From assembly GCA_963758155.1 (NCBI GenBank), contig CAVWUP010000006.1:22399-86398 (forward strand): a stretch of DNA of 64,000 nucleotides. The letters are read 5' to 3'. Under the pieces are notes generated by a model. It was not told where the DNA came from, did no database searches, and saw only the letters and a program-made list of their open reading frames with translations. This document shows, in pieces, positions 151 through 12,567 of the stretch (positions are counted from its first letter, which is position 1; every line of letters starts with the position of its first letter). Source of the stretch: an uncultured delta proteobacterium (GTDB lineage: Bacteria; Myxococcota_A; Polyangia; Fen-1088). The position numbers and the translations under genes are program-made.

Positions 151-1431
151 ATGACCGCGAGATTTCCGTTTGCACTGCACGCATCGATGCTCTGTCTGGC
201 AATTGCCGGGTTCGCCATCGAAGCATGGGCTGGGCAGAACGTCTTCTCCGTTTCGGGCAGCAATGTGCAGATCAACGGCCAGCCGTTCAAGGTGATCGGC
301 CTGCGGCTCTCGAACGGCCTGGTCAGCGACGCCAAGACGCAAGAGCTGATCGCCAATCTGGACGTGTTCAAATCCTACGGCATCAACACGTTCAGCGTGT
401 TCTTCATGGGATCGCGCTACGGAGACGTCAAGGGCTACCTTGCGGACGCCACCATCGACCCCAGCTACGCGGCACGGATGGCGAAGATCATCGAGGCCGC
501 AGACGCTCGCGGCATGGTCGTGCTGGTGGGGTGCCTCTACTGGGGCACCTCGACCGCGATGGATGGGCTGGTCGGATGGACACAAACGCAGGCGAACCAG
601 GCCATCGCGAACACCGTGACGTGGCTAAAAACCAACAGCTACCGCAATGTCTTCCTCGACCCCGACAACGAAGGCATGTCCCCGTTCACTGACGCCCCCT
701 TGATCGCCGCCGGGCATGCCGTCGATCCCTCGATCATGATCGCATGCAATAGAGGTTCCGCCAGCGTGGGTGGTGGAAGCCCAACCGATTGCCAAGCGAG
801 CTCCGACCTCAATATCCATTATGGCGCCAAGGTTGCGGGCAAGCCGTGGCTGGAGAGCGAGGGAGTGCCCGATGCTGCCAACTACTGGGGCGCCTACAGC
901 GAGACCGCCAACTACGACAACTACATACGGATCGGCCTTTACACGGCTGCGTACAAGGCGTTGGCGATAAGCGACGCGGAGGACGCCATAAACAGCAACG
1001 CCGGCTACGTGCTCGCATCGACGTGGCTGCAATGCGGACCGGGGCAGGGCATCGGCGGCCCGTTCATGACTCCGGGCGGATACTCGAACGTCGCGGACGT
1101 CGACGCCAATACCACGGCCGTGAACCCGGACGCCGGGGTCAGGTGGTGGCTTGAGGCAATGCAGGCGGCGTACGGCGCCTGGGGTTCTGCGGGTTCCGAT
1201 GGCGGCGCGCCCGATGCGACATCGGCCGGGGCTGGTGGCGCTTCAGGAGCGGGTGGTGCCGCTGGCACCGGCGGCGCGGCTGGTCTTGCGCAGGACACTC
1301 CCGCCGACGCGGGCTGCTCGTGCGATCTGGGCGCACGAAGCCGCAAGCCGGGATTCGGCCTTGCGTCGATCCTCGTTCTCGCGCTCGGTCTCGTGCTGCG
1401 CTCTAGCCGAGCTGCGCACCCTGGAACATGA
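151..1431 (+). CDS. Secreted TIM-barrel glycoside-hydrolase-like protein with MYXO-CTERM-type C-terminal sorting tail
   Basis: In-frame ATG at 151 inside ORF 64..1431 gives signal peptide MTARFPFALHASMLCLAIAGFAIEAWA. Body has GH5-like motifs (VLVGCLYWG, FLDPDNEG). A Gly/Ala-rich linker is followed by GCSCD, a hydrophobic helix and RSSR at the C-terminus. Confidence 0.7.
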   Translation: MTARFPFALHASMLCLAIAGFAIEAWAGQNVFSVSGSNVQINGQPFKVIGLRLSNGLVSDAKTQELIANLDVFKSYGINTFSVFFMGSRYGDVKGYLADATIDPSYAARMAKIIEAADARGMVVLVGCLYWGTSTAMDGLVGWTQTQANQAIANTVTWLKTNSYRNVFLDPDNEGMSPFTDAPLIAAGHAVDPSIMIACNRGSASVGGGSPTDCQASSDLNIHYGAKVAGKPWLESEGVPDAANYWGAYSETANYDNYIRIGLYTAAYKALAISDAEDAINSNAGYVLASTWLQCGPGQGIGGPFMTPGGYSNVADVDANTTAVNPDAGVRWWLEAMQAAYGAWGSAGSDGGAPDATSAGAGGASGAGGAAGTGGAAGLAQDTPADAGCSCDLGARSRKPGFGLASILVLALGLVLRSSRAAHPGT

Positions 1432-1468
1432 AAGCCTTTGGTCCGCGTCCGCTGGTATACTGGAATCG

Positions 1469-1762
1469 ATGAGGCGCGAAGAGGCCATCTCGACCCTGCG
1501 GAGCTTTCTGCCCGCCATCCAGCGCGACTTCGGCGTGCGCCGGCTCTCCTTGTTCGGGTCCACGGCCCGCGACGAGGCTCGCGACGACAGCGACCTGGAC
1601 CTGTTGGTCGACTTCGCCGTCGGCCCGACGTTCGATTCCTTCATGGGCCTCAAGTTCTTCCTGGAGGACCATCTCGGCCGAAGGGTGGATATCGTCACAC
1701 CCGCGGCCCTGAAGCCTCGGATGCGTCCTGTGGTGGAGCGCGAGGCAGTGGATGTCGCCTAA
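1469..1762 (+). CDS. MNT-type minimal nucleotidyltransferase antitoxin (partner of HepT)
   Basis: ATG at 1469 in the frame of ORF 1151..1762. LFGSTARDEARDDSDLDLLVDF matches the GSxxRG...DxD nucleotidyltransferase motif. Overlaps the downstream HepT gene by 11 nt. Confidence 0.85.
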   Translation: MRREEAISTLRSFLPAIQRDFGVRRLSLFGSTARDEARDDSDLDLLVDFAVGPTFDSFMGLKFFLEDHLGRRVDIVTPAALKPRMRPVVEREAVDVA

Positions 1763-2093
1763 TACCCGCGATTGGCGGCTTTATGCCGACGACATCATCG
1801 AGTCCTGCGGCAGGATTCGGCAGTTCGTCGCGGGGATGACCTTTGAAGCGTTCGTCGCCGACCGGCGCACGTGCGACGCTGTGATCCGAAACATCGAAGT
1901 CATCGGCGAGGCTGCCAAGAATCTCCCCGACGACGTCATCGCCAAGGCGCCTGAGATAGAATGGCGCAAGATTCGCGGAATGCGCGACGTCCTGGCGCAT
2001 GGCTACTTCGACCTGGACGCGAAGGTGGTCTGGAGCACCGCCACGACCAAACTGGACGAGCTTGAGCGCGCGGTTCGCGGCCTGCTCGCGTAG
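1752..2093 (+). CDS. HepT (DUF86/HEPN) toxin
   Basis: 113-aa ORF. RGMRDVLAHGY is the Rx4-6H HEPN motif. Overlaps the upstream MNT gene in the classic MNT-HepT arrangement. Confidence 0.9.
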   Translation: MSPNTRDWRLYADDIIESCGRIRQFVAGMTFEAFVADRRTCDAVIRNIEVIGEAAKNLPDDVIAKAPEIEWRKIRGMRDVLAHGYFDLDAKVVWSTATTKLDELERAVRGLLA

Positions 2094-2173
2094 CCGTTTA
2101 GTCGCCTCCACCAGCGTGACAACATGCTGGGAATGGAAGCGCGGTTCAGCGGGTTGCTTTCTTGAGCCATCGA

Positions 2174-2566
2174 ATGACCACCTTTCCGCCGCCTTTCGAT
2201 GAGTTGCGGCCCGAGACCGCCGCTGACCTGGCACATCGGTGGAGCGAGCCCTGCGAAGCGGTGTTCGAGTTTCTTGCCGAGAACTACCCGCCAGAATTGC
2301 TGAAGCTGATCGGTTCGGATCGCCTTCGGGGTACGGATCTCACTTTCGCAGCCGAGATTGCGGGACGGCTTTCGGATAGCACGGCTGTGCGGCGCACCCT
2401 GCTGCCTCTGCTGTTGCACGACGATGCGGTGGTTCGCGAGGGCGCCATCTACGGCCTGGCACCGCAAGCTGACGAGACCGTGCGCTCGGCACTGGCGCGG
2501 CTTTCGACGTCCGACCCGACCGCGGCGGTCCGGCAGGCAGCAACGGATACTCTCGCCGACCTGTGA
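2174..2566 (+). CDS. Small HEAT-repeat protein
   Basis: ATG at 2174 within ORF 2162..2566. Repeated LLxDxDxxVRxxAxxxL units (LLLHDDAVVREGAIYGL, STSDPTAAVRQAATDTL). Confidence 0.55.
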   Translation: MTTFPPPFDELRPETAADLAHRWSEPCEAVFEFLAENYPPELLKLIGSDRLRGTDLTFAAEIAGRLSDSTAVRRTLLPLLLHDDAVVREGAIYGLAPQADETVRSALARLSTSDPTAAVRQAATDTLADL

Positions 2567-2747
2567 CCGCGCTGATCAGGCCGCAGCCAGGCACTCGCCC
2601 AAGCGGCTGGAGGACGCTACTTTGGCCAAATCTTCGTGTACGGCAGGAATGCCCGGACGGTCATCGTTGGAATCCTCAGCACTGCTTGCTTCGTCGGTCT
2701 TTCCGCGCTACCCTCAATTATCACTCACTTCTTCGGGAGCGTGACAC

Positions 2748-3092
2748 ATGCGGCTAGAAGCGACTCTTCCAGATTCTCGGGGCGACGCCCTGGTCAAGCT
2801 CGCGAACGAACTGGGCCTGACCCGAAGCCAGGTCGTGGATGAGGCTGTGGGCCTCTTCCTGAAAGCCGTCCTGGAGATCCGACGAGGCAGGCGGCTGGTA
2901 ACAGTGGACGCGGTGACGCCGGGACCCTTGTGCGAGATGGCGACGCCGACGTTGGCCACGCTCGAATGGACGACGAATGCAGAGCCGATCAGGCTGCCGG
3001 CGTCAGCCGTGGCCAAGATGCAGGGGCTCGTGGCGGCTCCGCGCAAGCCAGGTGCCCGGTTGCGTTCCGCAGCTCGACGCCACGCCAAATGA
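2748..3092 (+). CDS. Ribbon-helix-helix (CopG/Arc-like) antitoxin-type protein
   Basis: The N-terminus MRLEATLPDSRGDALVKLANELGLTRSQVVDEAVGLFLK has a beta-strand plus two-helix RHH pattern. No adjacent toxin was recognised. Confidence 0.5.
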   Translation: MRLEATLPDSRGDALVKLANELGLTRSQVVDEAVGLFLKAVLEIRRGRRLVTVDAVTPGPLCEMATPTLATLEWTTNAEPIRLPASAVAKMQGLVAAPRKPGARLRSAARRHAK

Positions 3093-3150
3093 ACACGCCC
3101 GAGACCACGCCGTACCGCTTGCCGGGCTGGATTGTGGCACAATAGGGGCG

Positions 3151-3384
3151 ATGGCAAGCTACCAGCGCATCTCTGTGGACCCGCGACAGATGGGCGGCAC
3201 CCCTTGTCTTCGTCGCCTGCGCATACCCGTCGCCACGGTGGTGGAGATGGTGGCAGAGGGGATGACGACCGAGGAGATATTGGCGGCCTATCCTGACCTG
3301 GAACGCGAAGATATCGCGGAGGCCTTGCGTTACGCGGCCGAGGCTGTTCGAGAACGGGAACTGCCGCTTCGGACCGTCGCCTGA
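3151..3384 (+). CDS. DUF433 antitoxin-like protein
   Basis: ATG at 3151 in ORF 2977..3384. Sequence is MASYQRISVDPRQMGGTPCLRRLRIPVATVVEMVAEGMTTEEILAAYPDLEREDIAEALRYA. It lies directly upstream of the DUF5615 gene. Confidence 0.85.
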   Translation: MASYQRISVDPRQMGGTPCLRRLRIPVATVVEMVAEGMTTEEILAAYPDLEREDIAEALRYAAEAVRERELPLRTVA

Positions 3385-3414
3385 CGCCATCGGGTGCCCG
3401 GCCTGGCCACCAGC

Positions 3415-3795
3415 ATGAGATTCCTCGTCGACAACGCTTTGTCGCCGCTGGTGGCCGAGGGACTTCGTCGCAGTGGGCACGACGCCGTCCACGTGCGCGA
3501 CTACGGCATGGCAACGGCTTCTGACGAGGACATCATGGCGCGCGCCATGGCCGAAGACAGGGTGGTGGTCTCGGCCGACACCGACTTCGGCACCTTCTTG
3601 GCACTGCGGCGTGAGGCGCGGCCATCGGTGATTCTCTTTCGCCATGGGAGCCAACGCCGCCCGGAACGGCAGGTCGAGATCCTGCGCGCGAATCTCGATG
3701 CGCTCGCCGAGGACCTGGCGGCGGGCAGCGTTGTGATATTCGAGAGCGCTCGGCTGCGCGTGCGGCGGCTTCCCATAGGTGGCCAGGCTCCCTGA
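3415..3795 (+). CDS. DUF5615 (PIN-like) toxin-type protein
   Basis: ATG at 3415 in ORF 3394..3795. [29 protein letters not shown]...VVSADTDFG is typical of the DUF433 partner family. Confidence 0.85.
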
Positions 3796-3816
3796 ATCCG
3801 ACAGATCGATCCCACG

Positions 3817-4113
3817 ATGACCGAGGCCTACCTGATTCTGCGCGACCTCGGGAATCGCGTGGCCGAGGTGCACCTGAGCGAGGTCAACGCCGCGAGCAAG
3901 CACGAACCAATTTCCTACGGCGCCACGCTGGCCTACCAACAAGTGGCCTCCATGATTCCAGAGACCATCCCCGTCATCCTGGAATCGATCGTCACTGCCG
4001 AGTTCATCGACGACGAGATCGAGGCCGCGCACGAGGCCCTGGCGACGGGTGGCCCGCGGCTGCGGGTGCGAAAACGACGTTCAGGGGCGACGGCCAGGCG
4101 GCTTCACGCGTAG
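3817..4113 (+). pseudogene. 3'-terminal fragment of a TIM-barrel sugar-phosphate isomerase/epimerase-like gene (copy 1)
   Basis: Only 98 codons. It starts in mid-domain (LGNRVAEVHLSEVN...). Positions 3874..4113 are repeated at 4871..5110. Confidence 0.55.
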
Positions 4114-4144
4114 TTCGCCGCCCCATCCTCCGGGGCCGAACTTG

Positions 4145-4324
4145 TCAGGAAGCCTTCTTGGCGGCGCTCGCCCTTCTTGGCGGCAGCGTTACCACGTGCC
4201 GCCCACTTGCCCGCTGCCGAGCCCTCGCGGCCTCGGCGATTCTCCGGAGATCGTTGTCCGACGCCTTGGCTATGGCCTCGCGAATCGCGTGGATCTCGTC
4301 GACGATAGGATCGGAAAGCGACAT
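4145..4324 (-). CDS. 59-aa putative antitoxin/partner of the PIN protein (absent from the ORF track)
   Basis: My translation of the minus strand gives MSLSDPIVDEIHAIREAIAKASDNDLRRIAEAARARQRASGRHVVTLPPRRASAAKKAS*. Its ATG lies 3 nt after the PIN gene stop. Confidence 0.5.
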   Translation of the reverse strand: MSLSDPIVDEIHAIREAIAKASDNDLRRIAEAARARQRASGRHVVTLPPRRASAAKKAS

Positions 4325-4327
4325 TGT

Positions 4328-4798
4328 CTACTCCTCGACCAGCTCAAGGGGCGTGCATATGACGGGTGGCTCGTAGCCTGCTGCTCTGCAGATTGCCTCA
4401 ATTCTACTACGTAAGGTCGCGTTGGCTATGTGTTTGCAGTTCCAGCTCAAGAGGTAGTCCATGCCGTGAACCGTCGCGACAGCAACGTGGAAAGCGTCCA
4501 CCCGCGCCTGCTGGGGGAGCCCGCCTCCAGCGATGAGTTCTTCGGCGAGCACAGTCGCGTCATCGGTGACGTCCAGAACGGCGATCTGTTCCAGCGTCGC
4601 CAACCGCAACGCAGCGGCTTCAGGGTCGCCTTTCGACGCCTCGTCCAGGACGAACTGCGAGATATAGATGTCGAAAGCCTGTCGACCAGCCCACCATTCG
4701 CGCGTGACCTGCTGATGAGCAGCCCGAACCAAGTCCTCACTTGGACGCGCGGTCAAGTAGCTGACCATGGTTGTTTCGACGTAGGCTTTCTGTTTCAT
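4328..4798 (-). CDS. PIN-domain (VapC-like) toxin
   Basis: ATG at 4798 (MKQKAYVETTMVSYL...) within ORF 4328..4822. Acidic residues are spaced as in PIN domains (VETT.., FVLDE, VDAFHVA, SWNCKH). Confidence 0.75.
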   Translation of the reverse strand: MKQKAYVETTMVSYLTARPSEDLVRAAHQQVTREWWAGRQAFDIYISQFVLDEASKGDPEAAALRLATLEQIAVLDVTDDATVLAEELIAGGGLPQQARVDAFHVAVATVHGMDYLLSWNCKHIANATLRSRIEAICRAAGYEPPVICTPLELVEE

Positions 4799-4870
4799 GG
4801 GCAATGGCCGCCTTCTGCCCAACCTGAATTCGGCAAGTCTAACCGAGTTGCGTCCGTAAGCCTAGCGGCC

Positions 4871-5110
4871 CTGAGCGAGGTCAACGCCGCGAGCAAGCAC
4901 GAACCAATTTCCTACGGCGCCACGCTGGCCTTTCAACAAGTGGCCTCCATGATTCCAGAAACCATCCCCGTCATCCTGGAATCGATCGTCAGCGCCGAGT
5001 TCATCGACGACGAGATCGAAGCCGCGCACGAGGCATTGGCGACAGGCGGTCCCCGGCCGCGGGTGCGAAGGCGACGGTCAGGCGCGACGGCCAAGCCGGT
5101 TCACGCGTAG
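4871..5110 (+). pseudogene. Second copy of the same gene 3' fragment (direct repeat of 3874..4113)
   Basis: 240 nt that aligns colinearly with 3874..4113, with about 20 mismatches by manual count. It encodes LSEVNAASKHEPISYGATLAFQQVASMIPETIPVILESIV...VHA* and has no upstream coding continuation. Confidence 0.6.
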
Positions 5111-5201: not shown

Positions 5202-5933
5202 CTAGCCACCGGACTCGCCTTCCAGAGCCTTCGCGTCCGACGGGACTTGTTCATTCTCAGCCACGGCTTCCAACTCGCGTCGCGCCTCGCCAGGCTCCAC
5301 ATTCTGCCTTTGTGTATACTCCAGGTAGCCGGTCTTGATTTGGTCGGCGGTTTCGAAGCTCCATCCATTGTCGCCCGAGGCAGCCTTCATTCCGGTAACC
5401 GCATCTGGGATGGAGAGGCCCTTCGACACCAGATGATAAAAGGCAAGATAGGAAACCGCGGTATCAGCCCACGTAGGCTTTTCACAGTTACCGATCAACG
5501 CAAGGAACGGTTGTGTCTCCTCTACAGTAGACATGGCCATGATCCCGGCGAAATAGCCTTCGCAAGCGGACATGCAAAGAAGCAGAGTCCCAGAGAGACT
5601 TTCGTTAATGGGAAGGAGCAACTGCCGGAGCGCCTCCCAGTCCACGACGTCACCGCTGGAAAGCTGCAGACCCTCCCTCCCACCGTGAGCGCTCATGTGC
5701 AGAATGGGAAGGCGATCAGGAAACTGTTTCATCGCCTCAGGAAGACCAATTCTGAGCGCTGCCGTGAATGCCGTATGATTGATCGCAGTCCTGGTAACAC
5801 ACGGGATGCCATCCAGTGCAATAGCCTGTGCGACTACTCCGCCCTCCGATCTGCCGTGATAGATATCCGATGCCGACGGCGATTCGACGATGTAAACGAA
5901 GAAATCCAGCTTCTCCGGCTTTGGGTCGCTCAT
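5202..5933 (-). CDS. Small caspase/CHAT-like (His-Cys dyad) protein, function unknown
   Basis: 243-aa ORF with RBS GGAGGTATCC before the ATG. ILHMSAHGGREGLQL and LLLCMSACEG resemble the H-G and SAC catalytic segments of clan CD/CHAT peptidases. It is visibly more A/T-rich than its neighbours and lies co-directionally downstream of hsdS. Confidence 0.6.
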   Translation of the reverse strand: MSDPKPEKLDFFVYIVESPSASDIYHGRSEGGVVAQAIALDGIPCVTRTAINHTAFTAALRIGLPEAMKQFPDRLPILHMSAHGGREGLQLSSGDVVDWEALRQLLLPINESLSGTLLLCMSACEGYFAGIMAMSTVEETQPFLALIGNCEKPTWADTAVSYLAFYHLVSKGLSIPDAVTGMKAASGDNGWSFETADQIKTGYLEYTQRQNVEPGEARRELEAVAENEQVPSDAKALEGESGG

Positions 5934-6056
5934 GGATACCTCCCCTGGCTATACCTTGTGTCCAGCGACTCTGGCGGAGTTCCGTCCGTCAGCTTGGCGG
6001 CATGGGGCGGGCGCCATTGGGACTCTCCCTTGGGGGTGCGTGGCATGTTTCCCCTT

Positions 6057-7762
6057 TCAATTGGCTACGGCGGCGGCCAGGGATTCGGCCAGGCGGGTGG
6101 CGGTTTCCTCTTGTTTGCGGAGCTTGGTTTCGAGGTCGTCGAGGAGGGACATCAGGTGGTCGACCTTGGCAACGATGCGTTTCTGCTCGGCCAAGGGGGG
6201 AATCGGGACACCGAGTGTCTTGAGGTCGCGCAGGTATAGCGCGGGCTGCGCCATGGTTCGCGTCAGGCCCACCATACAGCGCTGTCCGTAGGTCGACCGT
6301 AGAAGCATCAACAGGAACTCAGACCGGAGAAATCTCGGCGGACGGACCAGGATCACGCTACCCATAAGGGCAAACATCGGGAGTCCTGCCTGAACTACAC
6401 AGCATTTTCCGACTGAACCCCGTCCGACAATGAGGAGGTCGCCCGCGCGCGGATCACACCGCTGGCGGAACCGCGCCGCATCTTCGACTGATACGTACTT
6501 TGGCTCATTGACAGACACACCGGCGTTCGTCACGTGCTTCGCCGAAAGCATCAGAAAACCTTGTGGAACGGTCTTCGGCTGGATGTGTTCGCCGTCGGTG
6601 AGTTTCTCGGCGACTTTGCCAAGTGGAGCAACAGTCCAGCCCGCAGGCAGAGAAAAGGGCAGAATCGCGCCCTCATCTTCGCCCGGCGGATTCTGAATTG
6701 AACTGGCGCTACCACGAGTGGATGAACCCGATCTGATATCGTCCACATCGGAATTGTCCCAGGCGAGTCTGCCGCTGACAGCCAGATCGAGAATTGCGGT
6801 GCGGAGGTCGGAACTCCCGTCAGGGCCGGCGAAGAGGAGACCGAAGTCCCCATCTATCCGGCACCATGCGGCGGAGAGATCGTCGGCGGTCTCGGCGGTG
6901 GTGAGGGCGGTGAGGGCGCTGCGGGTGGATTGGGTGGCGAGGTCGCGCTTCTTGGTTTGCCTGGCCTCCAGGTCGTCGGAAAGGGCCATGAGCTGATCGA
7001 CCTTGGCCACGATGCGCTTCTGCTCCATGACTGGTGGAATGGGTACCTGCAAGTCTTGGAGCCGTTTCATGCTGAGGCCTTCGCGTGAAACGCCAACCTG
7101 GACGCCCATGATGAGCGCCTGAAAATAGGGGGAGATGAGGCAGAGGTGCGCGAATGCGCGAAGGTCGCGATCAACCAGGCGCACGATGGCCACATGCTGA
7201 CTCACGTTGCCCTCGTCGAAGTCGTCAGGGACCACCGCACATCGACCAATGGATGCTCCGGTGATGTTCAGCAGCAGATCGCCGGGACGGACGTGCGTGC
7301 CCTCCATGCGCTGATGAGTTTCCTGCGTCGATGAAGGCAACATCGTCGAGGCGCAGACCACTGTCCCAAACGTTCTGCGACCGGAGGAATTTGATTCCGG
7401 AGCGCTTGTAGACGCTTTTTCCACCGAGAGGCGTGCTGCCTGCGCCGAGCTTGACGGCAATCTCGCCGAGGCGTGCCCAGCACCAGTTGGCGGGGATTTC
7501 AAACGAGGGGTCTGCGGCCTGGTCGTCGGAGGCCGTCTCATCTCGCTTGCGGTTCAGTGAGCGCCCTTGAATATCATGGCCATCCCGTTGCAGCCCAATC
7601 TTCGCGAGGACATCGTGACCTCGACCTTCACGCGAAAACTTGCGGAACCAGGCGGCCAGCAACCGCCAGCGAAAGTACAGCTTGCCTCGCGTTGTCGATC
7701 CCGCCGTGGGCATCGACGACCAATGGAAGTGCATCGGAAAATCTGGCGGCACTTGACATCAT
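6057..7762 (-). pseudogene. hsdS: Type I R-M specificity subunit HsdS, frame-disrupted
   Basis: An ATG at 7762 lies 1 nt after the hsdM stop and gives MMSSAARFSDALPLVVDAHGGIDNARQAVLSLAVAGRLVPQ. The frame then changes near the A4 run at 7635..7638 (FEIPANWCWARLGEI..AFIDA). It changes again near 7322 (ETHQRMEGTHVRPGDLLLNITG...). Two TRDs and the repeated conserved helices (EQKRIVAKVDxLM) are present. Confidence 0.8.
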
Positions 7763-7763
7763 G

Positions 7764-9209
7764 TCAGCCAGCTCCCAGCGCCTTCGCCAGTTCCTCCCGC
7801 AATTTCTCCCGCACCTTGTCCACCTCGGCCGCCGCTTTCCGGTATTGCTTGAGCAGCTCATCCGGATCGCCCGGCCCATCGTCCACGGCGCGCGGGTTCT
7901 TGATGTCCAGGTTGTAGCTGCGCGCCTTGATGTCCTCGATGCTGACTTTCCAGGCTTGGTCGGTTTCTTTGCGCTTGGCCCACCATTTCTTCTCGGGGGC
8001 GAACTCGTCGATGCGCATGGGCTTGGTCTTGCTGTAGCTCTTGTAGCCAGGCGGGTAGGGATGGTCGTAGTACCAGACGGTTTTGGTGGGCGTGCCCCGC
8101 TCGAAGAAGAGCAGGTTGGTCTTGATGCCGGTGTAGGGGCTGAACACGCCCTTGGGCAGGCGGACGATGGTGTGCAGGTTGCACTCTTCCAGCAGCTTTT
8201 CCTTGATGCGGGTCTTCACGCCCTCGCCGAAGAGCGTCCCATCGGGCAAGACCAGGGCAGCCCGGCCGCCGGGCTTGAGCAAGGTCATCAGCAGCACCAG
8301 AAATAGATCGGCGGTTTCGCGGGTGCGAAAGGTCTGCGGAAAACTGTTCTCCACGCCGTCTTCTTCCATGCCGCCAAAGGGTGGATTGGTGACGATCACG
8401 TCCACGCGATCCTTGGGGCCGTAGTCGCGCAGGGGACGGACCAGGGCGTTGTCGTGGCGGATGTTGGATGGCACCTCGATCTCGTGCAGGATCATGTTGG
8501 TCGTGCACAGCAGGTGCGGCATCGGCTTCTTCTCGATGCCCCGGATGCTTTCCTGCAGCCTCGCCTCTTGCGCAGCGCTTTTCACGTACTGCTTGCGCAC
8601 GTGCTCGATGGCGCAGACCAGGAAGCCGCCGGTGCCACACGCGGGGTCGAGAACGGTTTCGCCCAGCTTGGGGTCGACCATGTCCACGATGAACTGGGTC
8701 ACTGCCCGCGGGGTGTAGTATTCGCCCGCGTTCCCGGCGCCCTGCAGGTCGGCCAGGATCTGTTCGTAGATGTCGTTGAACTGGTGGCGGTCAGTGGCGC
8801 GGTTGAAATTGACCTCGTTCAGCTTGTTGATCACCTGGCGCATCAGGTGACCGCTCTTCATGTAGTTGTAGGCGTCCTCGAACACATCGCGCACCACCGC
8901 GGCCAGCTTGGCCTGCTTGCCGGTGGCGGGCAGTTCCTTCAGCGCCTTGAACACGTCGTTGTTCACGAAGTCGAGCAGGGCATCGCCGGTGATGCCCTCG
9001 GGGTTATTGGCCCAGGTCCGCCAGCGCAGGCGTTGCGGGATGGGGGACTTGTAGTCGTCGTCCAGCAGTTCCTTTTCGGCGTCGCGGTCGTCCAGCACCT
9101 TGAGGAACAGCATCCAGCCGAGCTGGCTGACCCGCTGGGCGTCGCCGTCGACCCCGGCATCCTTGCGCATGATGTCCTGGATCGTCTTGATGGTCGTACT
9201 GAGGGACAT
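7764..9209 (-). CDS. hsdM: Type I R-M N6-adenine DNA methyltransferase HsdM
   Basis: Intact 481-aa ORF with motifs LDPACGTGGFL (AdoMet binding), IVTNPPFGG (catalytic NPPF) and an N-terminal HsdM_N-like region. Confidence 0.95.
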   Translation of the reverse strand: MSLSTTIKTIQDIMRKDAGVDGDAQRVSQLGWMLFLKVLDDRDAEKELLDDDYKSPIPQRLRWRTWANNPEGITGDALLDFVNNDVFKALKELPATGKQAKLAAVVRDVFEDAYNYMKSGHLMRQVINKLNEVNFNRATDRHQFNDIYEQILADLQGAGNAGEYYTPRAVTQFIVDMVDPKLGETVLDPACGTGGFLVCAIEHVRKQYVKSAAQEARLQESIRGIEKKPMPHLLCTTNMILHEIEVPSNIRHDNALVRPLRDYGPKDRVDVIVTNPPFGGMEEDGVENSFPQTFRTRETADLFLVLLMTLLKPGGRAALVLPDGTLFGEGVKTRIKEKLLEECNLHTIVRLPKGVFSPYTGIKTNLLFFERGTPTKTVWYYDHPYPPGYKSYSKTKPMRIDEFAPEKKWWAKRKETDQAWKVSIEDIKARSYNLDIKNPRAVDDGPGDPDELLKQYRKAAAEVDKVREKLREELAKALGAG

Positions 9210-9241: not shown

Positions 9242-11624
9242 TCAAGAAGCCTTGTACAGCTCGTCCTCAAGATCGCGGACAGCCTGCTGGTACTTGTCCT
9301 TGCCGCCGAAGGTTTCCACGATCTCGACCGGGGTGCCCAGGCGGGAGAGCGGGTTCAGCTTGAGAACGTTCATGGTCTCGATGTCGTCCACGCCCTCGTC
9401 GGCGTACTTCTGCAGCAGCGCCTCCAGGGTATCGCGGGCAGCGGGACCGTACTTGGTGAAGTAGTTCCGCTTGCGCACGTTGTTGGCGCGCTCCTTGCGG
9501 GTCAGGGCTGGCTGGTCAAAGGCCACGTGGCACACGAGATCGAAAGCCGAAAAGTCCTTGCCCACTTCCTCGGCCAGCTCCTCGAAGAAGACGCCTTGCT
9601 CGCGCAGCTCGGCGACCACGGCCTGCTTGCGGTCGGCCTCGGTCCAGACTTTGAGGAACCGATCCAGGGACGCGAACTCCTTGCGCACGGCCTTGCGGAC
9701 GTAGTCACGCAAGGATTCGCTGACCAGTTTGCCGTCGTTGCCGTAGTACTGGACGCGCATTGGCGAGTCACGGTGACCGGCACGTCGTCCACGACGTACT
9801 TCTTGCGATGGCCGCCATCAGCAGAGACAGCTTCGCCGGGACTGCCTTCCCCGCTTGCCCTGGGCTTCGCCATCAGCAAACGCCGGGGCGGCGGCAATGC
9901 TGCCTTCCTCGTCCGGGATCTCTGGGGGAACCGGGGACTCGTCGACTTTGGGCCGGTAGATCTGTACCGGCTGACCATCGAAGTCGGGATCGGCGAACAG
10001 CTCGGTGGCGCGCTTGAAGTCGATGATGGTGAAGTAGCGCTTGTTGTAGTCTTCGCGGATGCGCGTGCCACGTCCGATGATCTGCTTGAACTCGGTCATG
10101 GACTGGATGGTTTGGTCCAGAACGATCAGCTTGCAGGTCTGGGCGTCCACGCCGGTGCTCATCAGTTTCGATGTGGTCGCGATGACCGGGTAGCGCTGGT
10201 CGGGAGTGATGAAGTTTTCCAGCTCGCCCTTGCCATCGGGGCTGTCCCCGGTGATGCGCATGATGTACTTGCGGTTGGCGGAGGACAGATCCTCGTTCTC
10301 GTTGACCAGGGCCTGGCGCATGCGTTCGGCGTGATCGATGTCTTCGCAGAAGATGATGGTCTTGTCGTAGCGGTCGGTGGCCTTGAGAAACTCGGTCACC
10401 TTGCGCGCCACGAGCTCGGTCCGCTTTTCGAGAACGAGGGTGCGGTCGAAGTCGCGCTGGTTGTAGATGCGGTCGATCGATGACTTCGCCGTGCTTGTCG
10501 CGCTTGCCTTGCTCGGGCCGCCAGCCCTGGAGATCCTTGTCGAGATCGATGCGCACCACCTTGTAGGGGGCCAGGAAGCCGTCTTCGATGCCTTGCTTGA
10601 GCGAGTAGACGTAGACCGGCTCGCCGAAGTAGTTCGTGGTGGAGATGTCGGTGGTTTCCTTGGGCGTGGCGGTCAGGCCGATCTGCGTCGCCGATGAGAA
10701 ATAGTCCAAGATCTCGCGCCAGGCGGAGTTGGCGTTCGCGCTGCCGCGGTGACATTCATCGACGACGATCAGGTCGAAGAATCCAGGGGAGAACTGCTTG
10801 AAGATGTCCTGCGACTCTTCGTTGCCAGAAATCGCCTGGTACAGGGCCAGATAGATCTCGTAGGACTTCTCGGCCTGGCGGTTCTTGATCCGGTGCATGG
10901 CCGCACCAAACGGGCTGAAGTCCTTGTTCTTGGTCTGGGTCAACAGGATGTCGCGGTCAGCGAGGAACAAGATGCGCTTCTTGATGCCCGCCTTCCACAG
11001 GCGCCAGATGATCTGGAACGCGGTGTAGGTCTTGCCGGTCCCGGTGGCCATGACCAGCAGGACGCGGTCTTGTCCCTTGGCGATGGCTTCGACAGTGGCG
11101 TTGATGGCGCGGGCCTGGTAGTAGCGCGGGCTCTTGTCGACGGCGTCAGGGTAGTAGTCCTGGGTGACGGTGGGCAAGCTGGCGCCGCTGATGCCCTTCC
11201 ACGTGCAGTACCGCTTCCACAGCTCGGCCGGTGAGGGGAACGCATCCATGGAAAATTCACGCTCAGGACGCCGCTGCTGACCCGACCTGTCGTGTTCGAG
11301 GAAGCCGTCCCCGTTCGAGCTGTAGACTGACGGCACGCCCAGCATTTCGGCGTAGGTCAGGGCCTGTTGCATGCCATCGCCAACCCGGTGCTTGTTGTCC
11401 TTGGCCTCAACCACCGCGATGGGGATGTTCGGCTTGTAGAAGAGGACGTAGTCGGCGAACTTCCGCTCGCCCCGTCGGACCATGCGTCCGCGAACGATGA
11501 CCTGGCCGTCGGTCAGGTAGACCTGCTCGCGCACCTGCGAATTGATGTCCCACCCGGATGCGGTCAACGCCGGGGTGATGAACTTGGTACAGATGTCCCG
11601 TTCCGACAGGTCTTTCTTGTTCAC
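9242..11624 (-). pseudogene. hsdR: Type I R-M restriction/helicase subunit HsdR, three frameshifts
   Basis: A GTG at 11624 gives [20 protein letters not shown]. Nuclease (VVEAKD) and helicase motifs ([18 protein letters not shown]) are in the frame of ORF 9873..11813. The helicase C-terminus ([13 protein letters not shown]...QIIGRGTR) is in the frame of ORF 9818..10411. KKYVVDDVPVTVTRQ is in a third frame, and the C-terminus (RVQYYGNDGKLVSE...) is in ORF 9242..9760. Confidence 0.85.
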
Positions 11625-11694
11625 GATGTGCCCGCCAGCCAGACGCCATGGTACCGCAGATCGCGGTCGCTGGCGCGATTGAAGGCAGACAGTC

Positions 11695-12567
11695 TCACCC
11701 CGTCGACTTCTTCCCCGGCGTTCCCGGGACTTTGCGGAAATCCACGAAGAGCTTGCGCTCGGTGGGTTGGCAGGTGGGGCAGAAGCAGGCGTCGTCGCGG
11801 CCCACGCGCACACGGCGGATTGTGGTTGCGCAGACCAGACAGGGCTCGCCCGCGCGGCCTCGCACCTTGAGGAAGTCGCGAACCTTCACTTCGATGGGCT
11901 GGTTGCGCGCCTCAATCTCGCGAATCGCGGCGTCCAGAATCTCGCGGATGGCGGCGAAGAGGCGGTCCACGTCGTCGGGCTGCAACTTGTGGCAGAAGGT
12001 CTTGGGGTGCAGGCGCGCGGCGAAGAGAATCTCGTCGGCGTAGGCGTTGCCGATGGAAGCGAGCGCGGTCTTGTCGAGCAGGAACTGGCGGACTTGATCA
12101 CGTCGGTTGGCCACCAGGCGCCGCATGTGCGACAGGGTGAACGCGTCCGAAAGCAGGTCGACGCCCAAAGTGGCGAAGCCAGGGATTTGATCCAACTGGT
12201 CGACGCGGGCCACGTAGATCTTGCCCATGCGGGTCTCGTCCGCGTAGCGCAACTCGGTGCCACCCGAGAAGGCCAGCGCCAGGATCAAATCGCGGCCCGC
12301 GCGCGTTCCGGTTTGCACCAACGAGTACCGGCCGGTCAACATCGCGTTCACCACCATGCACAGGCCGCCATCCAGATCGAAGCGTAGAAACTGCCCGCGT
12401 CGCTTCACTTCGACGATGCGCTTGCCCTTGAGCATCGCCGGGAACGGGTCCGGCACCATGATCCGTAGCACCACCGGATCGCCGACGCGAACATCGACGA
12501 TGGGCAGGCCGCACGCTTCCCGCCTCAGCACGGCTTCCACGTGAACCAGATCGGGCAACTCGGGCAC
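11695..12567 (-). CDS. Fpg/Nei-family DNA glycosylase / AP lyase
   Basis: A GTG at 12567 gives (M)[12 protein letters not shown], matching the catalytic N-terminal Pro-Glu of Fpg. H2TH region [20 protein letters not shown] and C-terminal zinc finger CLVCATTI...CFCPTCQ are present. Confidence 0.85.

Follow-up and report, generated by a model that had tools for sequence, protein, structure and literature searches.

A sensor-less protein with a predicted caspase/CHAT-type fold, encoded behind an hsdRMS operon, represents a large unnamed mobile family

Described caspase-fold proteases and the locus

Caspase-fold proteases have recently been found to act as bacterial immune executioners, in Craspase, in SAVED-CHAT together with PCaspase, in gasdermin systems and in type IV Thoeris; in addition, orthocaspases are prokaryotic caspase homologues, some of them short and containing only the p20 part. 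To our knowledge, every known immune caspase-fold protease is tied to a sensor domain or to a partner gene. For example, the caspase-like protein of type IV Thoeris carries a ligand-binding domain at its C-terminus and needs a TIR protein that produces N7-cADPR (Rousset et al., bioRxiv 10.1101/2024.10.24.620036); PCaspase needs cleavage by SAVED-CHAT (bioRxiv 10.1101/2023.06.23.546230).

Here, we describe a 243-aa protein whose gene lies at 5202..5933 (stop codon included) on the minus strand of the window, the 64,000-nt stretch of DNA that was analysed. The gene is classed as encoding a stand-alone caspase-fold (clan CD-like) protein from the ORF list, its translation, full-length homologues, an AlphaFold2 model, Foldseek and per-position conservation. 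Its reading frame of 243 codons is intact, with no internal stops on translation, and a Shine-Dalgarno sequence, GGAGG, is read directly at 5939..5943 on the minus strand (CCTCC on the plus strand), 5 nt before the ATG at 5931-5933, which agrees with the strong ribosome binding site given in the preliminary description. The same gene, identical in sequence, occurs in contigs of two independent soil metagenomes, and it has no paralogue within the window. The conserved core spans residues 11-200, a tail specific to the subfamily takes up residues 210-243, and the protein ends about 40 residues past the core. The earlier view that it lacks a sensor domain holds; only the catalytic core is present.

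Among described proteins, the CHAT proteases (PF12770), which include the SAVED-CHAT of the Haliangium type III-B CRISPR system and the Csx29/TPR-CHAT of Craspase, provide the best structural match, and SAVED-CHAT has the same His-then-Cys order with similar spacing (H375/C422 there, H83/C124 here). However, the 243-aa protein has no SAVED, TPR or other sensor, is much shorter (243 aa versus ~480 to >700 aa), has no CRISPR or CBASS partner, and belongs to a family with hallmark motifs of its own (ESPS after strand 1, HxSxHG and an invariant Trp99). The type IV Thoeris effector and PCaspase likewise combine a caspase protease fold with the role of a broad immune executioner in bacteria, and their catalytic Cys, compared by description, falls near residue 125-130 of the N-terminal protease domain (C129 in PsCaspase); in contrast, the 243-aa protein has neither a ligand-binding domain nor a conserved partner. 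In particular, the adjacent TIR gene and C-terminal ligand-binding domain that mark type IV Thoeris are absent, and the gene's neighbours in the window are hsdS and a PIN gene. The orthocaspases and metacaspases (C14B, PF00656) have the fold and the dyad in common with it, but Peptidase_C14 gives no match to the 243-aa protein at E <= 10 and the family-specific motifs differ. Legumain (C13, PF01650) is similar in that its His148-Gly149 and Cys189 align with His83-Gly84 and Cys124 (ACES there, ACEG here); the resemblance is limited to the His-to-Cys region, and unlike legumain the 243-aa protein, which is cytoplasmic, has neither a signal peptide nor an LSAM prodomain.

Predicted fold and candidate active site

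The AlphaFold2 model of the 243-aa protein (pLDDT 90.2, pTM 0.81) contains six strands in caspase order, at residues 11-18, 45-49, 75-84, 118-122, 145-149 and 191-195. A Foldseek search against the PDB returned 16 matches at E <= 1e-3, and these, like the remainder of the 50 matches listed, are all clan CD proteins with probabilities of at least 0.99. The top match is SAVED-CHAT 8tl0 (E 1e-7, probability 1.0), followed by caspases 3, 7 and 8, legumain and GPI8, with moderate TM-scores of 0.45-0.55. Against BFVD, the first eight matches (probability at least 0.99) are clostripain, caspase-domain or unnamed proteins, with one exception, the tick-virus protein VP9. A TIR or other Rossmann-like fold was also considered, and was rejected because Foldseek gave no match to such a fold at a probability of 0.9 or above.

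The two motifs noticed at the outset, ILHMSAHGGREGLQL and LLLCMSACEG, are present at residues 77-91 and 117-126, and the His and Cys in question are His83 and, 41 residues further on, Cys124. The predicted catalytic His-Gly pair, His83-Gly84 (codons at 5682..5687, minus strand; plus-strand GTG at 5685-5687 is CAC in the coding sense), closes strand 3 within ILHMSAHG, and Ala123-Cys124 (codons at 5562..5567, minus strand; plus-strand GCA at 5562-5564 is TGC in the coding sense), with the predicted nucleophile, lies directly past strand 4 within LLLCMSAC. Two features that define clan CD are seen in model and family: a six-stranded alpha/beta sheet with the His past strand 3 and the Cys past strand 4, and a family-conserved His-Gly...Ala-Cys motif in which a hydrophobic strand precedes both halves. 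On the basis of this topology and of the alignments, His83 and Cys124 are predicted to be juxtaposed in space. Three residues, Cys124, Glu17 and Trp99, show no variation (100%) among 100 diverse relatives, and His83 (99%), His79 (99%), Gly84 (98%) and Ser122 (98%) are nearly invariant. Glu17, a residue of the ESPS motif whose own codon is at 5883..5885 (minus strand), falls at the C-terminal end of strand 1 in the model.

An hhalign comparison with legumain, whose sequence was checked against PDB entry 4fgu, puts His83-Gly84 on His148-Gly149 and Cys124 on Cys189, at a statistically weak E of 0.068, and the same comparison of the family with a single caspase-3 sequence gave no usable alignment. 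The sole Pfam model to touch the protein is Peptidase_C13, whose profile positions 112-162 match residues 77-126 below threshold (13.6 bits, E 0.047, against a gathering cut-off of 22.8); no Pfam clan CD model reaches threshold, and CHAT (PF12770) gives no match at E <= 10. Among 35 relatives, weak matches to Peptidase_C13 occur in 26 and to CHAT in 23, the best CHAT match having an E of 4.6e-4. PDB sequence searches with the protein and two family profiles returned only irrelevant matches (E of at least 0.4). Overall, the proposal of a caspase/CHAT-like clan CD protein is borne out by structure prediction, as the model matches proteins of the caspase-haemoglobinase fold and His83 and Cys124 align to the legumain dyad.

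Family spread, genomic context and competing explanations

The protein has 163 close homologues with 53-68% identity over the full length, and 1415 clusters (at 50% identity) match it at E <= 1e-3, which makes the ORF more than a chance reading frame. Members measure ~190-260 aa and have no extra domain; of the cluster matches listed, nearly all are ~200-270 aa long. The hosts of the family include Nitrospirota, Acidobacteriota, Planctomycetota, several proteobacterial classes, Bacteroidota and one archaeal (Methanobacterium) MAG. No Pfam, NCBIfam or PADLOC family claims the 243-aa protein, in keeping with the initial failure to place it in a described family; in particular, none of the PADLOC-DB v2.0.0 models, a library from 2023 in which later systems are not covered, matches at E <= 10. 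This is a large, unnamed, horizontally mobile family reduced to the caspase/CHAT catalytic core.

Members of the family have little in common in their surroundings. In ~100 contexts, no conserved partner gene emerged when neighbouring ORFs were compared with one another by BLAST at two stringencies, and neighbours are shared only within near-identical elements, such as those with an enterobacterial HTH gene or a Polynucleobacter pair. Further, blastn of 300-nt flanks found neither conserved flanking DNA nor integron- or MITE-like cassette ends. The commonest neighbours in Pfam censuses are resolvases, rve integrases, PemK and PIN genes; two copies are flanked by transposases, one relative lies in an E. 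coli integrase island between dinD and yicC (found in 6 of 5426 genomes) that also holds a restriction endonuclease, and several contexts are plain housekeeping neighbourhoods. Defence-like neighbours are sporadic: a Vibrio plasmid relative adjoins SIR2 and AAA genes, elsewhere there are TIR/SEFIR or DUF3800 genes or single PADLOC matches, defence genes appear only sporadically in a PADLOC census of 146 neighbours, and many contexts are neutral. As judged from gene neighbourhoods, an association of the family with defence loci in general is at most suggestive.

The best explanation, which we hold to be somewhat better than an even bet, is that the protein is a cytoplasmic, single-domain, clan CD-type cysteine endopeptidase, carried as one-gene mobile cargo and most likely serving a role in genetic conflict. 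The reading frame, the fold prediction, the residue conservation, the family size and the solitary, mobile context are the observations on which this explanation builds; from them we infer protease activity, specificity, regulation and a biological role. Cys124, past strand 4, would be the nucleophile and His83, at the end of strand 3, the general base, while Glu17, invariant and placed where strand 1 ends, may be a third catalytic residue that orients the His, or may line the S1 pocket. The conserved acidic and polar residues around the predicted active site (Glu17, Asp23, Glu30 and Ser122) suggest a preference for a basic P1 residue. With no sensor domain in the protein, regulation has to act from beyond the catalytic core, and could be exerted through transcription (enterobacterial members have a divergent HTH gene), oligomerisation or the variable C-terminal tail. 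The gene would behave as self-contained cargo, moved horizontally into variable regions, plasmids, integrative islands and prophage ends. Its role, the least certain step, may be that of an abortive-infection or defence effector, or some other benefit to a mobile element; a part in genetic conflict, whether defence or abortive infection, is plausible for the family. We count against this explanation that a protease with neither sensor nor partner has no obvious trigger.

In its most specific form, the proposal describes the smallest self-sufficient caspase-type immune module: a sensor-less, one-gene abortive-infection protease, latent as a monomer or closed by its tail, whose direct activator is a phage product (one that triggers dimerisation, say, or a phage protease that cleaves it) and which then cuts host proteins after basic residues. 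We regard this version as unlikely.

Alternatively, the protein could help plasmids, ICEs and temperate phages to counter defence or to establish themselves, by cleaving host immune or regulatory proteins on entry. Several contexts are consistent with such a function, including a co-directional block in which the protease gene is joined by a resolvase and an anti-restriction-type ArdC-N gene (locus L039), a relative on a 4-kb Salmonella plasmid, two prophages in which the relative adjoins the integrase at the prophage end, and the number of recombinases among neighbours. However, defence genes just as typically occupy such cargo positions beside integrases. Most copies are found on chromosomes, often with no gene of a mobile element in the surrounding few kb, and viral copies are rare: 50,697 sequenced phage genomes contain no match, and a relative is present in only 7 of 2.9 million IMG/VR contigs. 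We consider this function improbable.

It is also conceivable, at a small probability, that the fold has been kept for a non-catalytic or non-protease purpose, as a scaffold, a transamidase or ligase, or a thiol/redox protein acting through HxxxH...CxxxC. His79 and Cys120 form a second conserved His/Cys pair, four residues ahead of His83 and Cys124, and the Foldseek matches include peptide ligases and GPI transamidase. But Cys120 is retained in only 81% of the 100 diverse relatives and is freely replaced by Ser, Ala or Gly, whereas the invariant residues fall exactly at the protease dyad positions. Moreover, all characterised enzymes of the caspase-haemoglobinase fold that we know of cleave or transfer peptide bonds.

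We give little credence to a toxin-antitoxin-like arrangement, in which the protease would be the toxin of a pair or would be held by a small inhibitor that is not recognised as a gene. The island in the window is indeed rich in toxin-antitoxin genes (MNT-HepT, DUF433-DUF5615 and PIN), PIN genes lie downstream of the protease gene in the window and in two further loci (L002 and L003), and PCaspase is paired with an inhibitor of its own, PCi (bioRxiv 10.1101/2023.06.23.546230). However, the three PIN genes are not one family, and an all-against-all BLAST of ORFs of at least 45 aa within 1.5 kb found no small partner shared between contexts, near-identical elements aside.

The relation to restriction-modification has to be weighed because of the gene's position. 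The upstream operon is identified by Pfam as hsdS (Methylase_S), hsdM (N6_Mtase/HsdM_N) and hsdR (ResIII/Helicase_C/EcoEI_R_C), and the hsdS ORF ends at 6057 on the same strand; as first described, the protease gene is co-directional with the hsd genes and follows the hsdS stop after a spacer of 123 nt (5934..6056, minus strand). A consensus scan found no promoter-like or terminator-like site in this spacer, whose predicted fold is no more stable than those of shuffled sequences, and around the gene there is likewise no promoter-like site and no flank hairpin better than shuffled sequences. Since the spacer has no such sites, transcriptional read-through from the hsd operon into the protease gene is possible. 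One of the soil-metagenome contigs runs across the boundary from the protease gene into hsdS; in one metagenome, a different left flank is joined from ~6063, at the hsdS end. The hsd genes show frame breaks, with six single-base differences in hsdR and hsdS that may be assembly errors. The distinct composition reported earlier was confirmed, with a GC content of 0.563 against a window mean of 0.643 (sd 0.029), equally GC-poor sliding windows numbering only 4 of 633, and a GC3 of 0.63 that is ~0.25 below that of hsdM and hsdR (0.87-0.88). Such a sharply different codon composition suggests that the protease gene has a separate origin from the hsd genes.

Across the family, a restriction-modification or methyltransferase gene lies directly upstream in only 4 of ~100 contexts. 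Besides the window, these are L043, with a 76-nt gap behind a Type ISP-like set (PLD-SNF2, an Eco57I methyltransferase and Type_ISP_C); L044, ~2.5 kb past an Eco57I/MmeI-type methyltransferase; and L046, 0.9 kb past a 1068-aa N6_Mtase protein, all co-directional. No restriction-modification Pfam family has two or more members among 295 neighbouring proteins in two Pfam censuses, and tblastn with the three methyltransferases finds nothing in other loci; these counts rule out such an association as a property of the family. The idea that the gene is appended to the operon as a functional unit is not upheld, given the lack of a conserved neighbour, the 4 of ~100 contexts, the compositional gap and the alternative flank at the hsdS end. 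The position behind hsdRMS looks like co-location within an island of toxin-antitoxin and restriction genes, by chance and not by coupling. A protease co-transcribed with hsdRMS as an accessory effector, for example a suicide or back-up arm when restriction fails, is thus very improbable, despite the short spacer with no predicted terminator or promoter and the three relatives lying 3' of unrelated restriction-modification or methyltransferase genes, as these same results and the solitary relatives on the 4-kb plasmid and in prophages speak against it.

Significance of a bare catalytic core

The bare catalytic core found here constitutes a widespread (~1400 clusters), strongly conserved and mobile family, and assigns a fold and a candidate active site to thousands of 'hypothetical proteins'. 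If the protein is active, how a sensor-less protease stays safe and gets switched on becomes the question, and the family would offer a minimal model for the activation of the caspase fold. As E. coli (WP_001556320.1) and a small Salmonella plasmid each carry a member, that question can be addressed directly in laboratory strains. If the one-gene immune module were true, caspase-like cell suicide would be spreading freely among bacteria, archaea, plasmids and prophages.

Gene, predicted fold and putative active site

The caspase-fold gene is a stop-free, 243-residue open reading frame on the minus strand (5202..5933), with a GGAGG on the coding strand (plus-strand 5939-5943) 5 nt before its ATG. 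The motifs ILHMSAHGGREGLQL and LLLCMSACEG occupy residues 77-91 and 117-126 of the translation, which places His83 and Cys124 41 residues apart. The gene is the lowest-GC stretch of the window, with a GC content of 0.563 versus a window mean of 0.643 (sd 0.029), and a GC3 of 0.63 versus 0.87-0.88 for hsdM and hsdR. Base-for-base copies occur in contigs from two independent soil metagenomes, and one of these contigs covers the junction with hsdS. Translation, sequence and composition data confirm the preliminary description with respect to the reading frame, its ribosome binding site, both motifs, the order and spacing of His and Cys, the distinct composition, and the 123 nt gap that separates the gene from the hsdS stop codon.

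With 35 homologues as input, AlphaFold2 gives a confident model (pLDDT 90.2, pTM 0.81) of six strands with interleaved helices (strand residues 11-18, 45-49, 75-84, 118-122, 145-149 and 191-195). Among the Foldseek matches listed from the PDB, with probabilities of at least 0.99 and TM-scores of 0.45-0.55, there are solely proteins of the caspase-haemoglobinase fold; the best is the SAVED-CHAT filament 8tl0 (E 1e-7), followed by caspases 3, 7 and 8, legumain, plant asparaginyl ligases and a GPI transamidase subunit. Of the best eight matches to viral models (all with a probability of at least 0.99), one is a tick-virus VP9 fragment and the others are clostripain, caspase-domain or unnamed proteins. 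In the model, strand 3 closes with His83-Gly84 and Ala123-Cys124 comes after strand 4, an arrangement that reportedly defines clan CD in the 2015 account of McLuskey and Mottram. When a profile of 100 diverse family members is aligned with human legumain (sequence checked against PDB entry 4fgu), His83-Gly84 falls on His148-Gly149 and Cys124 on Cys189, in register but with weak statistics (E 0.068). From topology and alignment, His83 and Cys124 are predicted to be close in space.

Across the same 100 members, Cys124, Glu17 and Trp99 are 100% conserved; His83, His79, Gly88 and Tyr166 are 99% conserved; Gly84 and Ser122 reach 98% and Ser18 97%; and Cys120 is present in 81%, being otherwise Ser, Ala or Gly. 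This conservation points to the same His83/Cys124 site among the members. The conserved core spans residues 11-200, while the C-terminal 35 residues, with their P-x-x-AKALE motif, are confined to a close subfamily. The protein is probably cytoplasmic, since its sequence shows neither an evident signal peptide nor an evident membrane segment.

Overall, the window protein has both the fold and the His-Gly/Ala-Cys motif of clan CD, and the earlier reading of a clan CD fold with a His/Cys dyad is supported by the Foldseek matches, the strand positions, the legumain alignment and the conservation. The protein reaches none of the Pfam thresholds of the clan CD families tested (CHAT, C13 and C14); its only Pfam match is a sub-threshold Peptidase_C13 at residues 77-126 (13.6 bits versus a cut-off of 22.8). 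Weak matches to Peptidase_C13 and CHAT appear in 26 and 23 of 35 relatives, respectively.

The hsd genes and the surrounding island

Upstream, Pfam identifies the genes of a type I restriction-modification system, co-directional with the caspase-fold gene: hsdS (Methylase_S, 6057-7541), hsdM (N6_Mtase and HsdM_N, 7764-9209) and hsdR (pieces of ResIII/HSDR_N, Helicase_C and EcoEI_R_C, 9242-11813). The frame breaks of hsdR and hsdS in the window match exactly six single-base differences (~7324/7326, 7635/7640, two within 9759-9767, 9854/9857, and 10478) from short-read contigs of two soil metagenomes; the contigs covering these sites diverge by 3-5% from the window and thus represent related strains. 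Deleting the six bases restores an uninterrupted frame in both genes, 879 codons long in hsdR; the genes are therefore intact in related strains, and those of the window have either been misassembled or decayed in this strain.

The caspase-fold gene is housed in a ~10-kb stretch of toxin-antitoxin and restriction genes (1.4-11.7 kb), bounded by a secreted hydrolase gene on one side and an fpg/nei gene on the other; the stretch looks like a conflict-gene island. In a contig from one metagenome run, the 3′ end of hsdS (window from ~6063) runs leftwards into other sequence that replaces both the spacer and the caspase-fold gene and ends in …GCATCATGAAGGCTTGCCTTCATGC, a perfect hairpin; the junction behind hsdS thus appears to be strain-variable. 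This alternative flank, a codon composition unlike that of the hsd genes, and the island location together point to the caspase-fold gene having been acquired separately from them.

Within this island, the region next to the caspase-fold gene (1400-4830) is densely packed with genes of toxin-antitoxin type, including a nucleotidyltransferase/DUF86-like pair, RHH, DUF433-DUF5615/PIN_10 and PIN. Two plus-strand frames (3817-4113 and 4871-5110) encode a near-identical C-terminal peptide of ~80 residues, …EPISYGATLA[YF]QQVASMIPETIPVILESIV…; this repeat is a duplicated gene 3′ end bracketing a PIN cassette, which sits just downstream of the caspase-fold gene.

Spread, genomic contexts and mobility of the family

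Searches of PADLOC and NCBIfam with the window protein gave no match, and sequence searches of the PDB gave no relevant one. There are 163 close homologues (~240 aa, 53-68% identity), all annotated as hypothetical and without a Pfam domain. Among representative library clusters at 50% identity, 1415 match at E<=1e-3 and 539 at E<=1e-10, and nearly all of the matches listed are 200-270 aa long. At 45-65% identity, members are spread over Nitrospirota, Acidobacteriota, Planctomycetota, Bacteroidota, several classes of proteobacteria and a Methanobacterium MAG, and this taxonomic range is a further indication of horizontal transfer. Literature searches turned up no account of such a family of minimal, solitary proteins, which represents a new variant, at family level, of an enzyme type already known.

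Around 100 contexts were compared: 31 loci in genomes that represent their species, 10 long metagenome contigs for which Pfam hits had been precomputed, 55 further metagenome loci, plasmid and E. coli records, and 7 IMG/VR contigs. All-against-all BLAST of the neighboring frames revealed no partner common to different loci, and no conservation was found in the DNA flanking the relatives. Two Pfam censuses of neighbors (146 and 149 proteins) contained no restriction-modification family with two or more members; the first consisted mostly of miscellaneous families with two or three occurrences each, and the commonest in the second were Resolvase, rve integrase, PemK, HTH_3 and Recombinase. The second census matched no more than 86 Pfam families, suggesting that many neighbors are themselves unannotated, and defence-like matches in a PADLOC census were only scattered. 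An unrelated restriction-modification or methyltransferase gene lies directly upstream and co-directional in four of the ~100 contexts (~4%): hsdS in the window, and, in three other loci, a Type ISP-like set (L043), an Eco57I/MmeI-type methyltransferase (L044) and a 1068-aa N6_Mtase protein (L046). This frequency of ~4% is close to the expectation from co-location in variable islands. With those methyltransferases as queries, tblastn found no match in the other loci. A family-wide link to restriction-modification was accordingly rejected and, given also the GC3 mismatch and the variable hsdS flank, the proposal that the protease is an appended part of the operon is unsupported.

In a Lysobacterales MAG (L019, 9953-13045), and at this one locus only, a protein of 1031 aa that ends in a true CHAT domain (Pfam E 6.7e-18) is encoded ~1.2 kb downstream of the minimal caspase-fold gene. 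Two metagenome contigs unrelated to each other (L043, 1310-9631; L050, 8493-9491) have DUF3800 genes after the caspase-fold gene, in one case behind the Type ISP-like set and in the other near a SEFIR/TIR_2 gene.

Evidence that the family is horizontally mobile is abundant. The gene is flanked by transposases at two loci (L001 and L002), adjoins a resolvase and an ArdC-like gene at another (L039), and lies beside SIR2 and AAA genes on a Vibrio plasmid. Enterobacterial members (~190 aa, 30% identical) are always beside a divergent gene for a 125-aa HTH regulator (L035, 191-1387; L037, 8389-9585; L038, 8366-9564). A 4-kb Salmonella plasmid carries this experimentally tractable pair; of 5426 complete E. 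coli genomes, only 6 have it, within an island that is bounded by an integrase and lies between dinD and yicC. Moreover, two IMG/VR contigs (L136, 7989-10056; L137, 7959-10425) have members 125 nt and ~0.9 kb from a phage integrase; both are real prophages that include genes for tail, portal and terminase proteins, and the members lie at the prophage end, in the position of cargo (moron) genes. No family match was found in 50,697 isolated phage genomes.

Proposed activity and biological role

With its modelled caspase fold and conserved dyad positions, the protein would act as a cysteine endopeptidase in which Cys124 is the nucleophile and His83 the base. The invariant Glu17, at the end of strand 1, may be the third member of a triad or a residue of the S1 pocket wall, because the His-orienting residue of legumain (Asn42) and of gingipains is located at the equivalent point. 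Ser122 stands two positions ahead of the Cys, at a known S1 position (Gln283 in caspase-1). That the invariant residues are acidic in character suggests that basic residues are preferred at P1. Caspases carry a cleavable linker between strands 4 and 5; this region is only about 10-20 residues long in the window protein, making linker processing unlikely. Candidate means of control are dimerisation, the variable tail and, in enterobacteria, transcription through the divergent HTH gene.

As the preliminary description had held, no sensor or repeat domain accompanies the protease; the window protein has no extra domain, and its gene is a solitary genetic unit with a mobile distribution. In contrast, SAVED or TPR domains are fused to CHAT in SAVED/TPR-CHAT proteins, type IV Thoeris has a TIR partner and a C-terminal sensor, and PCaspase has a SAVED-CHAT activator and a PCi inhibitor. 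The window protein resembles a clan CD protease and lacks these defining partners and domains of the known bacterial caspase-type immune systems. The family's interest lies mainly in its size, strong conservation, absent sensor, and tractable E. coli and Salmonella members. On circumstantial grounds, the family most likely serves in genetic conflict, whether defence or anti-defence.
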